64,000 bases of DNA from Patescibacteria group bacterium (lineage in GTDB: Bacteria; Patescibacteriota; Minisyncoccia; Phycocordibacterales; PALSA-1337): positions 88,745 to 152,744 of the forward strand of contig JANLHG010000014.1 of assembly GCA_024654575.1 (NCBI GenBank), given 5' to 3'. Numbering within the stretch: the stretch's first letter is position 1; the number at the start of each line of letters is the position of its first letter. The position numbers were made by a program, and so were the translations under genes. Shown piece by piece: positions 37,392 to 40,796 of the stretch. The notes under the pieces were generated by a model. The model was given only the letters and a program-made list of their open reading frames with translations, was not told the origin of the DNA and made no database searches.

Positions 37392-37468
37392 TGGCGCGGT
37401 CGACCGGGCTTGAACCGGCAACCTCTCACGTGACAGGCGAGTGCTCTAACCAGTTGAGCTACGACCGC
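37392..37468 (-). tRNA. tRNA-Asp (GTC), CCA encoded
   Basis: Cloverleaf folded by hand: acceptor GCGGTCG/CGACCGC, anticodon loop CTGTCAC, T-loop TTCAAGC, GCCA 3' end. Confidence 0.9.
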
Positions 37469-37553
37469 ATCTCCTAAAATGTATCAGATTTAGCGATTCA
37501 AATCAATCTTGTGGATAAAGTCGTACTATCAATATGGTATTATATATTACACT

Positions 37554-38246
37554 ATGGCTAAGTTTGATTTACGCTTAAAAGCTTTAAAACGAAGGAGAAT
37601 AGGTGAAAGTATAGGACATATTGCAAAGGAATTGAATGTTTCAAAAGGTACGGTAAGTTTATGGTGTTCAGATATAGAATTAACCGAAAAACAAAAAGAA
37701 ATTTTAGCTAAAAAATCTAATCTCGCAAGTCTTGATGGAAGAATGCGAGGAGTTGAAACAAATAGAAAAAAAAGACTTGATACAATCTCACGATATGAAA
37801 AGGATGGAAAAGAATTTACTGGATGTTTATCCAGTCGAGATAAAATGCTTATTGGGGTAGCATTATATTGGGCAGAGGGGAGTAAAAAGAAAGGTGTTTT
37901 TAGTTTTGTTAACTCTGATGCAGTAATAGTTAAATGTGTATCTAGATGGTTAAATGATGTTATGGGAGTTTCTAAAGAAGATTTTATTCCTAGGGTTGCA
38001 ATCAATGAAATGCATAGAAAGCGTATTGAAAAAGTTTTGAATTTTTGGTCAAATCTGTTAGAATTGCCGCGTAGTCAATTTAGGAATACTTTTTTTATTA
38101 AAACTGTTCAAAAGAAAGTATATGAGAACTATGACACTTATTATGGTACTCTTGTACTTAGAGTTAGAAATAGTACTCATTTAAAGTATAGGATATTAGG
38201 TTTAATTGAGGGATTAAAGAACGGTATTTATAATTTGCTGGGGTAG
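37554..38246 (+). CDS. HTH-domain protein with a LAGLIDADG-like motif (GVALYWAEGSKK); paralog B
   Basis: HTH (IGHIAKELNVSKGTVSLW) plus the same central motif and C-terminal pattern (NYWS/NFWS...TNVP/LELP...SQF...YDTYYGTL) as paralog A. Its stop overlaps the first bases of tRNA-Met. Confidence 0.45.
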   Translation: MAKFDLRLKALKRRRIGESIGHIAKELNVSKGTVSLWCSDIELTEKQKEILAKKSNLASLDGRMRGVETNRKKRLDTISRYEKDGKEFTGCLSSRDKMLIGVALYWAEGSKKKGVFSFVNSDAVIVKCVSRWLNDVMGVSKEDFIPRVAINEMHRKRIEKVLNFWSNLLELPRSQFRNTFFIKTVQKKVYENYDTYYGTLVLRVRNSTHLKYRILGLIEGLKNGIYNLLG

Positions 38247-38310
38247 CTCAGGTAGTTAGAGCATCTCACTCATAAAGAGAAGGTCACAGGTGCAAGTCCT
38301 GTCTCCAGCA
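38237..38310 (+). tRNA. tRNA-Met/Ile2-type (anticodon CAT), elongator-like, 3' CAA (CCA not encoded)
   Basis: Cloverleaf: GCTGGGG/CTCCAGC with one G-U pair, D-arm GCTC...GAGC, anticodon loop CTCATAA, T-loop TGCAAGT. There is an A31-A39 mismatch. Confidence 0.75.
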
Positions 38311-38348
38311 CAAATTTGATCAAAATGAATAACTATTATAAATAAATT

Positions 38349-38891: not shown

Positions 38892-38946
38892 AAAACATTT
38901 TACAAATAAAATGTTCGGGCGAACATTTGCGAAGCAAATGTTTTAG
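38892..38946 (+). repeat. Two tandem related hairpins (AAAACATTTTACAAATAAAATGTT and CGAACATTTGCGAAGCAAATGTTTTAG) immediately upstream of tRNA-Thr; the second is near-identical to a hairpin inside rnpB
   Basis: Direct reading of the sequence; compare 59996..60024. Confidence 0.55.
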
Positions 38947-39022
38947 CCGTTGTAGCTCAGATGGTTAGAGCACTCCATTGGTAATGGGGAGGTCATCGGT
39001 TCAATTCCGATCAACGGCTCCA
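38946..39022 (+). tRNA. tRNA-Thr (GGT), CCA encoded
   Basis: GCCGTTG...anticodon loop TTGGTAA...T-loop TTCAATT...CAACGGC-T-CCA. Confidence 0.9.
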
Positions 39023-39031
39023 GTGCAAATT

Positions 39032-39107
39032 GCCAAAGTAGCTCAGTTGGTAGAGCACCGCTTTCGTAAAGCGGGGGTCGTCGGTTCAATCCCGACCTTT
39101 GGCTCCA
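39032..39107 (+). tRNA. tRNA-Thr (CGT), CCA encoded
   Basis: GCCAAAG...anticodon loop TTCGTAA...T-loop TTCAATC...CTTTGGC-T-CCA. Confidence 0.9.
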
Positions 39108-39111
39108 ATTT

Positions 39112-39848
39112 CCCGAAAGACGGTCTTTCGGGTATAATAGAAAGATGGGATATAGAAAGGTATCATTAATGGAGGGTGAATTTTACCATGTTTATAATCG
39201 TGGTAATAGTCGTCAAAGGATATTTTTTGACGATAATGATTATCGTCGCTTTATTAAATTACTTTATATTTGTAATTCCGTAAAGAAATTAGATTTTCGT
39301 GAAGATATAGTTGAAAAGAAAATCGATGTTTGGGATGTTGATCGAGAAAAAACATTAGTTTCAATAGGGGCGTGGGTTTTAATGCCTAATCATTTTCATA
39401 TCTACATTATTACTTCCCCAAAAGACGGTCTTTCGGGAGACTCAAAAGATAATAATATTACTATTTTTATGCGTAAACTTTGTACTGCTTATTCTAAATA
39501 CATTAATACAAAATATAAACGCACAGGTTCTCTTTTTGAGGGAAGATTTAAATCTGTCCATATTAGTGATGATATTCAAGCGAAATATCTTTTTTCGTAC
39601 ATTCATTTAAATGCCGTGAAATTAATTGACAAAAATTGGAAAATAAACGGTATAAAAAATTGGACGAAGGTCAAAAAGTTTCTAGAGAATTATAAATGGT
39701 CAAGCTATTTAGATTATAAAAAAGTTGTTCGTCATGAAAATAATATTTTAAATATAGAAGCATTTCCAAGTTATTTTAAAAATATAAAAGATTTCAATAC
39801 TGAAATAAATGATTGGCTTATGTAGTTCCCGAAAGACCGTCTTTTGGG
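39112..39848 (+). mobile_element. IS200/IS605-like (RAYT-type) Y1-transposase element flanked by REP-like hairpins CCCGAAAGAC(G/C)GTCTTT(C/T)GGG; a third copy lies in-frame inside the gene
   Basis: Hairpins at 39112-39132, 39416-39437 (intragenic, encoding PKDGLSG) and 39828-39848. Confidence 0.6.
39145..39825 (+). CDS. IS200-like / REP-associated tyrosine (Y1, HuH) transposase
   Basis: EFYHVYNRGNSRQRIFFDDNDYRRF...WVLMPNHFHIYI (HuH motif)...YSKYINTKYKRTGSLFEGRFKSVHISDD...YIHLN (catalytic-Tyr region). Confidence 0.7.
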   Translation: MGYRKVSLMEGEFYHVYNRGNSRQRIFFDDNDYRRFIKLLYICNSVKKLDFREDIVEKKIDVWDVDREKTLVSIGAWVLMPNHFHIYIITSPKDGLSGDSKDNNITIFMRKLCTAYSKYINTKYKRTGSLFEGRFKSVHISDDIQAKYLFSYIHLNAVKLIDKNWKINGIKNWTKVKKFLENYKWSSYLDYKKVVRHENNILNIEAFPSYFKNIKDFNTEINDWLM

Positions 39849-39914
39849 ACTGAAGTTCGTTCGGCATGGGGGGTGGCTCAGGTTACATATATTTGCTATT
39901 CTGTAATTATCTTT

Positions 39915-40796
39915 ATGTCCAAAGAACAAATTGAAAATAAAATAAAAGAATTAGAAGTGTCTATGAATACGGGTAATTTTTGGAATGATAAGGAAAAAGC
40001 TCAAGCTGTTATTAAAGAAATTCAACAATTAAAAAATGATTTAGAGGGAGTTGGGAAGTATGATAAAGGAAATGCCATCATGACTATTTTTTCTGGTGCG
40101 GGGGGTGATGATGCGGAGGATTTTTCAGCGATACTTTTTAGAATGTACACTAGATATTTTGACAAGCAAGGTTTTGGTTATAAAATTTTACACGAAAATA
40201 CAAATGACCACGGAGGCTTTAGAAATGTCACAATGGAAATTTCGGGAGGGGTCGGACCTTATGGAACTCTTAAAAATGAATCTGGTGTCCATCGTCTTGT
40301 TCGCATTTCTCCATTTAATGCTAAACAACTTCGCCATACTTCATTTTCAATGGTTGAAGTTATACCTAAATTGGATAAAACCGATAATGATATTGTTATT
40401 CCAGATAAAGACCTTGAAATTACTACAGCAAAATCAAGTGGACCGGGAGGTCAAAATGTTAACAAAAGAGAGACGGCAGTGCGAGCACTTCATATTCCTA
40501 CAAAACTTTCTGTTCATGTTGATAGTGAACGTTCTCAAATACAAAATAGAGAAAAAGCAGTTGAGATTTTAAAAGGTAAATTATATAAACTTCAAGAAGA
40601 TGAAAGAAAAGCCAAAGAAAAAGGAATGTATATTTCTAAAACCACTTCAATAGAATGGGGTAATCAAATTCGTTCCTATGTCCTTCATCCTTATAAAATG
40701 GTTAAAGACCACCGAACAAACATTGAAACATCACAAGTGGATAAGGTTCTAGAAGGTGATATAGACCAATTCATTAGCGCGGAGAAAAATATGTAG
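39915..40796 (+). CDS. prfB: Peptide chain release factor 2 (SPF motif); short N-terminal domain, no programmed +1 frameshift site
   Basis: RISPFNA (SPF tripeptide) and GGQ motif (SSGPGGQNVNK). It is 294 aa; the in-frame upstream sequence lacks a CTT-TGA-C shift site. Confidence 0.8.
   Translation: MSKEQIENKIKELEVSMNTGNFWNDKEKAQAVIKEIQQLKNDLEGVGKYDKGNAIMTIFSGAGGDDAEDFSAILFRMYTRYFDKQGFGYKILHENTNDHGGFRNVTMEISGGVGPYGTLKNESGVHRLVRISPFNAKQLRHTSFSMVEVIPKLDKTDNDIVIPDKDLEITTAKSSGPGGQNVNKRETAVRALHIPTKLSVHVDSERSQIQNREKAVEILKGKLYKLQEDERKAKEKGMYISKTTSIEWGNQIRSYVLHPYKMVKDHRTNIETSQVDKVLEGDIDQFISAEKNM

Follow-up and report, generated by a model that had tools for sequence, protein, structure and literature searches.

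A single-gene Y1 nuclease unit of Patescibacteria with matching hairpins at both ends and in frame inside the gene

The nuclease gene and its three hairpins

A stretch of 64,000 nucleotides (nt) from a Patescibacteria group bacterium (assembly GCA_024654575.1, contig JANLHG010000014.1, positions 88,745 to 152,744), referred to here as the window, contains a gene for a 226-amino-acid (aa) nuclease that lies between two tRNA-Thr genes and a prfB-like release-factor gene. The gene is accompanied by a 21-nt near-palindrome, CCCGAAAGAC-N-GTCTTTCGGG, with one copy upstream (hairpin U), one inside the coding sequence (hairpin I) and one downstream (hairpin D). The window was searched with the query CCCGAAAGACNGTCTTTCGGG allowing up to three mismatches and contained exactly these three sites, with no further hairpin away from the gene. 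The same search of the shuffled window gave no sites in 100 shuffles, and a single 10-nt arm was found elsewhere in the window at chance level only. The three-hairpin feature is therefore real and statistically unambiguous. The coordinates of the unit and its neighbors are given in Table 1. An earlier annotation made from the sequence (the original prediction) had reported the hairpin on both sides of the gene, the C spacer and T/G variant of the downstream copy, the two preceding tRNA-Thr genes and the prfB gene that follows, and all of these were found as described. It had also placed an in-frame copy encoding PKDGLSG at 39416-39437. The copy is in frame and encodes this peptide, and its true start is one base later, at 39417.

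Hairpin U sits 13 nt upstream of the ATG. Folded as single-stranded DNA it gave -9.2 kcal/mol (z = -3.9), and the imperfect copies I and D folded at -4.5 to -6.6 kcal/mol depending on the strand. Hairpin I is the exact reverse complement of hairpin D. It encodes P92-K-D-G-L-S-G98, directly past the HUH motif H83-F-H85. In perfect stems the loop alone defines the orientation of a hairpin. The centers of U and D in the window are G and C, respectively, and so are inverted; both arrangements occurred across related loci.

The gene encodes a Y1 HUH nuclease which is closest to the RAYTs and lies outside the curated families. The protein matched the NCBIfam model REP_Tyr_transpos (NF047646) with E = 1.4e-10 and 41.3 bits, below the 80-bit cut-off, and the Pfam model Y1_Tnp (PF01797) with 17.0 bits, below the gathering threshold of 23. 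REP_Tyr_transpos was matched by 32 of 32 aligned relatives (best E = 2.2e-13) and Y1_Tnp was weakly matched by 25 of the 32. Residues H83, H85, Y152 and N156 were invariant in the alignment of relatives. They align with H59/H61 (H59-M-H61), Y115 and N119 of Escherichia coli TnpA_REP, which are the metal-binding and catalytic residues of that enzyme (PMC3479197). The AlphaFold2 model of the protein had a predicted local distance difference test score (pLDDT) of 84 and a predicted template modeling score (pTM) of 0.83. The best fold match of this model in the PDB using Foldseek was TnpA_REP (4ER8, E = 9e-7), followed by the ISDra2, IS608 and IS200 transposases. A sequence search of the PDB gave a marginal match to 4ER8 only (E = 0.22), so it took the fold search to relate the protein to TnpA_REP. 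The family match, the invariant residues and the fold match agree with the original prediction of a Y1 RAYT/IS200-like nuclease flanked by its own hairpins. A homology search returned 6866 matches, and the named ones were all from Patescibacteria (Paceibacterota, Nomurabacteria, Zambryskibacteria).

Table 1. Positions of the unit, its parts and its neighbors in the window
Feature	Position	Strand	Remarks
tRNA-Thr (GGT)	38946-39022		Upstream of the unit
tRNA-Thr(CGT)	39032-39107	+	ARAGORN; Rfam tRNA, 69.9 bits; the element starts 4 nt past its 3' end
Hairpin U (upstream)	39112-39132	+	CCCGAAAGAC-G-GTCTTTCGGG; perfect 10-bp stem; center G
TATAAT -10 box	39133-39138	+	Abuts the foot of hairpin U; 6 nt before ATG
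Y1 HUH nuclease/transposase-like gene	39145-39825	+	226 aa
HUH motif H83-F84-H85	39391-39399	+	On strand E83-90; invariant in the alignment
Inserted loop, residues 91-103 (SPKDGLSGDSKDN)	39415-39453	+	Between the HUH strand and helix 104-123
Hairpin I (internal)	39417-39437	+	CCCAAAAGAC-G-GTCTTTCGGG; one A/C mismatch; in frame
Codon of Y152, predicted catalytic tyrosine	39598-39600	+	N156 follows in the YIHLN motif
Hairpin D (downstream)	39828-39848	+	CCCGAAAGAC-C-GTCTTTTGGG; one G/T; starts 2 nt past the TAG stop
Decayed copy of tRNA-Thr(CGT) T-arm and 3' acceptor strand	39849-39881	+	Alignment to locus L161
prfB-like release-factor gene	39915-40796	+	293 aa; PCRF and RF-1 domains; right-hand neighbor

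Hairpins across related loci

Two samples of homologous loci were compared. The wider-family sample comprised 80 genome loci whose proteins were 41-63% identical to the window protein, and the close-relative sample comprised 80 metagenomic loci with 57-76% identity, counted together with the window locus as 81. Of the 81 loci made up of the 80 genome loci and the window, 56 had a locus-specific palindrome common to the upstream and downstream flanks. In the wider family one copy of it is located approximately 30-60 nt upstream of the start codon and another at the stop codon or just past it. This shows the end hairpins to be a property of the whole Patescibacteria family.

Within the clade of the window the hairpins of a locus resembled each other and differed from those of other loci. 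When up to two mismatches were allowed, 47 of 53 clade loci had their own core in the upstream flank, at a distance of 30-60 nt from the start codon, and 43 of 52 had it in the downstream flank, between -35 and +26 nt relative to the stop codon. Cores of foreign loci were found in 62 of 2809 upstream and 68 of 2756 downstream comparisons (approximately 2%). There were 54 distinct cores in the clade, including CCCCGAAGAC.GTCTTCGGGG, TCCCCTAAACC.GGTTTAGGGGA, CCACATGTC.GACATGTGG, TGCGGAAGTC.GACTTCCGCA and CAGCCCTAGGC-AAG-GCCTAGGGCTG. Ten loci at one chromosomal position, with the gene between lysS and mraZ, carried at least five different palindromes. The copies are thus alike within a genome and divergent between genomes even at one chromosomal position, which shows concerted evolution in place. 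The same imperfection was common to I and D in the window and to I and U in L083, L093 and L094, sometimes in reverse-complement form. Such common imperfections point to copying between sites and not to independent selection for pairing. At stem position 4 the relatives have an A-T pair while the window has G-C in U, A/C in I and G/T in D. The window would therefore appear to hold a compensatory change caught midway.

Loop orientation varied among loci in every combination. It was considered as a clue to mechanism and rejected, as all combinations occur and a simple inversion between the arms could flip the loops. The reverse-complement identity of whole hairpins, including the stem mismatch, in the window and in L083 does argue for copying in the inverted sense. 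The only features seen in the flanks of the 54 distinct trios were a longer palindrome (TT...AA) and, now and then, a duplicated half-arm.

A direct repeat of one arm (8-11 nt) was often present 2-3 nt beside U or D (L081, L083, L099, L100, L110, L120, L132, L138). Two complete inverted hairpins, forming REPIN-like doublets, were present in L005, L094, L121, L025 and L060. These arm repeats and doublets may be traces of hairpin copying. In L110 the downstream hairpin recurs 1.2 kb further along, immediately past the next gene (L110:2189), and 10 nt or more of the flanking sequence on either side is identical too, which suggests duplication of a hairpin-bounded segment.

The in-gene hairpin was also found in the close relatives. 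The spacing from the HUH motif to the next helix was 13 residues in 53 of 60 outgroup proteins compared to a median of 22 in the clade of the window. Most members of the wider family have no palindrome between HUH and this helix, and the members nearest to the window have a longer post-HUH loop encoding a strong palindrome with a stem of 8-15 bp. A strong in-frame palindrome followed HUH in 78 of the 81 close loci, with a median palindrome score of 9.7; 75-nt windows elsewhere in these open reading frames (ORFs) had a median of 4.4 and a 95th percentile of 6.7. In a neighbor-joining tree this state was carried by 81 of the 90 tips of one Paceibacteria clade, and most of the tips seemingly lacking it were near-matches missed by the thresholds. 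The insert ranged from 17 to 31 nt across loci. In the AlphaFold2 model residues 91-103 were assigned by DSSP as coil between strand 83-90 and helix 104-123. Residues 95-98 had a pLDDT below 50, the lowest confidence in the model, and TnpA_REP has a 6-residue gap at this place in the alignment. The in-gene copy is shown to be an insertion of approximately nine codons into a disordered loop past the HUH strand, gained once at the base of the clade. The data support an old insertion which is native to approximately 80 homologues of one clade and has evolved together with the flanking copies. The original prediction had offered either a mobile hairpin that invaded the gene without breaking the frame or a hairpin tolerated as a loop insertion. 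An in-frame insertion into a tolerated loop fits the spacing and the low model confidence; a recent event does not fit a segment shared by so many homologues. The refuting condition named in the original prediction thus had a mixed outcome: the hairpin is confined to this gene in the window and the segment is native to the close homologues, but it is an insertion with respect to the wider family and TnpA_REP.

A second in-gene site was found in 15 loci of other clades. Here the flanking hairpin (CAAGG-N5-CCTTG type) recurs in frame approximately 75 nt upstream of the HUH codons, as the coding sequence for QGxxL, and matches the flanks of the same locus. As this site is at another position, in-gene cognate hairpins arose at two positions. 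The loci include L017, L045, L047-L050, L056, L057, L061, L068 and L071, with the site approximately 70-83 nt before the PNHFH codons, and there was no obvious change in length relative to members without a hairpin there. Module shuffling at the internal hairpin was also considered. The identities of the N- and C-terminal halves were correlated (r = 0.58), the standard deviation of their differences (0.065) was close to the estimated sampling noise and there was no clear recombination signal, so this was rejected.

Genomic context, copy number and promoter

Conserved synteny with tRNA-Thr and prfB was rejected, as none of the 160 homologous loci had both beside the gene. Synteny was seen instead in the ten loci above with the gene between lysS and mraZ, which include the closest long-contig relatives of the window, and in 14 loci with a common downstream membrane-protein gene. 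The genes lysS, greA, mraZ and rsmH are absent from the window. This long-term synteny indicates mostly vertical inheritance, during which the hairpins change in place and the gene occasionally relocates. Four metagenome-assembled genomes carry two divergent paralogues.

In the closest prfB relatives (74-80% identity), tRNA-Thr(CGT) is followed by prfB after 28-65 nt, and no nuclease gene lies in the interval. This empty junction was seen in L161 and L165-L168, so the empty sites that the original prediction had suggested looking for do exist in relatives. In the window the tRNA remnant downstream of hairpin D runs into the conserved prfB leader and is near-identical to L161 (GGTGGCTCAG and leader). 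By this alignment it marks the old tRNA-prfB junction. The empty junction of the relatives and the remnant together indicate that the unit was inserted between tRNA-Thr(CGT) and prfB in the window. Inspection of the flanks gave no conserved target motif, and the tRNA remnant makes the window junction harder to interpret.

The window tRNA-Thr(CGT) differs from the tRNA of L161, the closest prfB relative, in the T-arm and in the 3' acceptor strand (CTTTGGC compared to AGGTGGC); the L161 contig starts inside the tRNA. The tRNA may have been replaced together with the insertion. At L162:100-300, in another close relative, an unrelated GC-rich stretch with long inverted repeats (such as CCGCCCTCAACACCACAC...GTGTGGTGGTGAGGGCGG) lies upstream of the prfB leader in the place where other relatives have tRNA-Thr(CGT), and a tRNA-like remnant adjoins the leader. 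The tRNA-Thr(CGT)-prfB junction may be an insertion hot spot. The prfB-like gene itself is one unbroken 293-codon ORF without a programmed frameshift, and its homologues in the lineage are also approximately 293 aa. Typical RF2 is longer. Further upstream, a 245-codon ORF (37509-38246) occupies the interval from tRNA-Asp (37392-37468, minus strand) to tRNA-Met (38237-38311), sharing approximately 10 nt with the start of the latter.

The original prediction named REP-like abundance in the genome as support for RAYT function (REP: repetitive extragenic palindromic sequence). Such abundance was not borne out by the three copies in the window, all at the gene. Distant copies in the flanks of relatives numbered four in 770 kb and eight in 395 kb, or 12 in 1.16 Mb; E. 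coli K12 has 584 REPs (PMC3333891). The distant copies were mostly intergenic, 5-39 nt past the stop codon of another gene, and one (L103) was inside a 127-codon open frame. Some loci had additional hairpins, which were grouped at the gene in arrays or REPIN-like doublets.

In 29 of 37 loci a TATAAT-like hexamer (matching at 5 or more of 6 positions) had its end 6-8 nt upstream of the ATG; in 21 of them the distance was exactly 6 nt. Hairpin U ended 0-6 nt before such a hexamer in 21 of the 37, including the window. A -10 box 6 nt before the ATG implies a leaderless mRNA, and its position places hairpin U within the promoter (spacer and -35 region) and outside the gene's own mRNA. No -35 match was found at the window gene in a consensus scan. 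Hairpins U, I and D have no T tail and none was called by the terminator scan; Rfam matched only tRNAs in the region and no hairpin.

A DnaA-box-like nonamer (TTATCCACA or TTTTCCACA) was found past the downstream hairpin in 12 of 52 loci (L097, L098, L099, L102, L103, L105, L110, L113, L114, L134, L137, L142), where approximately 0.3 would be expected from background frequency. It lies 8-63 nt past the stop codon, in the spacer before a conserved membrane-protein gene starting MEKIKM.

Interpretation and comparison with known systems

The unit is best explained as a one-gene Y1 (HUH) tyrosine nuclease of the RAYT/IS200 superfamily with its cognate stem-loop at both ends and in frame inside the gene. 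The hairpins are probably the nuclease's own recognition stem-loops, forming a private set at the gene that would stay similar through copying from site to site. If the analogy with TnpA_REP and IS608 TnpA applies, the stem-loops would be bound by the enzyme in single-stranded DNA, which would be cut and rejoined beside them. All three sites are near the place where the protein is synthesized, and for this reason they would be kept identical by copying in either orientation, whether through enzyme-mediated strand transfer or templated repair. With hairpin U in the gene's own promoter, binding or extrusion there would probably throttle expression and give a form of autoregulation. The internal copy would be tolerated and may add to the feedback on expression. 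A stronger version, in which the in-gene hairpin is a selected self-referential control element, is possible but doubtful. On that account the coding-strand stem-loop, exposed during transcription or replication of the gene, would be recognized by the nuclease and, together with the promoter and terminal copies, would feed back on expression or trigger copying between sites. This would be a built-in form of concerted evolution, reached at least twice at two positions of the protein.

Several points weigh against the reading of the hairpins as recognition stem-loops kept alike by copying. The protein is below the curated cut-offs of both family models, and single-strand binding and cleavage are presumed from homology at approximately 13% sequence identity. 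In the flanks of the 54 trios neither a guide tetranucleotide nor a cleavage motif was conserved next to the hairpins, and a strictly strand-specific IS608-like mechanism would not predict the free orientation of the loops. No identical second copy of the element and no structural variants were seen. The internal copy is decayed (L005, L011) or diverged (L158) at loci where the flanking hairpins are still intact or perfect, which indicates that it is dispensable, and it may persist by copying drive alone. The sites, being near-perfect palindromes, can equally be read as double-stranded operators.

This last point is the basis of an alternative in which a dimeric protein, either the encoded one or a host factor, binds the sites in a repression loop with no single-stranded DNA chemistry. 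The upstream site fills the promoter spacer beside the -10 box, and the orientation of the center is irrelevant, as for a dyad-symmetric site. The center varies from 1 to 7 nt between loci, however, which fits the loops of hairpins and not a fixed half-site spacing. Operators would have no need for common imperfections in reverse-complement form, and the invariant HUH, Tyr and Asn residues argue for retained nuclease chemistry. The evidence thus counts against operators, which are considered improbable. A role in RNA or transcription was judged quite improbable. In this case U would terminate or insulate upstream transcripts such as the tRNAs, D would terminate or stabilize the mRNA, I would be an attenuator or pause site and the copies would be kept identical by ordinary gene conversion. 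In its favor, hairpin D lies across the stop codon or beyond it, the G/T variant of this hairpin could pair as G-U in RNA and the distant copies follow the stop codons of other genes. The evidence again counts against this, as there are no T tails, terminator calls or Rfam matches, U is outside the gene's own transcript given the position of the -10 box and I has an A/C mismatch on the mRNA strand. Such a role also leaves unexplained why lineage-specific sequences are tied to an HUH nuclease gene across the family.

A further alternative, extending the original prediction, was a classical RAYT with REPs spread through the genome, one of which, being mobile, recently jumped into the transposase gene. 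It is in keeping with the flanking palindromes, the RAYT-like protein, the few distant copies in relatives, mostly just 3' of other genes, and the REPIN-like doublets at some loci. The copy numbers given above count against it when compared to E. coli K12. So does the in-gene position, which is the same in approximately 80 homologues with 54 different sequences and must therefore be ancient. This model is regarded as highly improbable.

RAYT/IS200 enzymes are a model for the co-evolution of hairpin-recognizing nucleases and their DNA sites. These sites are outside genes and have usually been studied as large populations. Here the system has shrunk to three private sites at a single gene, and one of these is under constraint as coding sequence and as palindrome alike. 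The dozens of natural variants at orthologous loci are a compact data set for the hairpin features read by the enzyme. The locus also makes copying between short palindromes visible, with the half-way compensatory change in the window as one instance, and it allows tests on a mobile-element site that has become fixed in the gene of its own enzyme. For annotation it carries a warning, as conserved peptides such as PKDGLLG and SPKPGLGE in these proteins are dictated by DNA symmetry and not by protein function.

The window protein shares with RAYT/TnpA_REP (E. coli YafM, 4ER8) the Y1 HUH fold, the aligned HUH, Tyr and Asn residues and a C-terminal extension past the catalytic helix. The gene is bracketed by its own cognate palindromes, as RAYT genes are by REPs and BIMEs (PMC2817692), and part of the clade shows the single-locus, largely vertical inheritance of RAYTs (PMC5581495). 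Unlike RAYTs, the protein scores 41 bits against the 80-bit family cut-off, no genome-wide REP population was found in the window or in the 1.16 Mb of relatives' flanks and the hairpin foot has no conserved GTAG/GTGG-like tetranucleotide head in the 54 trios. A further difference is the cognate palindrome inside the coding sequence, co-evolving with the flanking ones. Flanking REPs are described in the main papers on RAYT and HUH enzymes, and no cognate hairpin conserved inside a RAYT or IS200 gene was found in those consulted.

Like the IS200/IS605 elements (IS200, IS608, ISDra2), the window unit is minimal, at approximately 0.74 kb, and has a single Y1 gene with a subterminal hairpin at either end, a layout (before the start, after the stop) which holds across the window protein's family. 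As in these elements, no terminal inverted repeats were evident in the window unit, relatives have an empty site and the TnpA folds match. The window unit differs in the Y1_Tnp score, which is below the gathering threshold, in the protein length of 226 aa compared to approximately 130-150 aa, in the third hairpin inside the gene and in that no multicopy identical elements were seen. The left and right hairpins of the window family are also essentially identical perfect palindromes of variable orientation, unlike those of IS200/IS605.

For in-frame palindromic inserts the nearest analogy is the Rickettsia palindromic elements (RPEs), in which the protein tolerates the in-frame insertion of a palindromic repeat (PMC10969869). 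The window insert is likewise an in-frame palindrome, as in RPEs and intragenic miniature inverted-repeat transposable elements, and is located in a low-confidence surface loop. RPEs are approximately 150 bp and are found in many unrelated genes, while the insert described here is 17-31 nt, is identical to the flanking copies and lies in the gene of the enzyme that presumably recognizes it.

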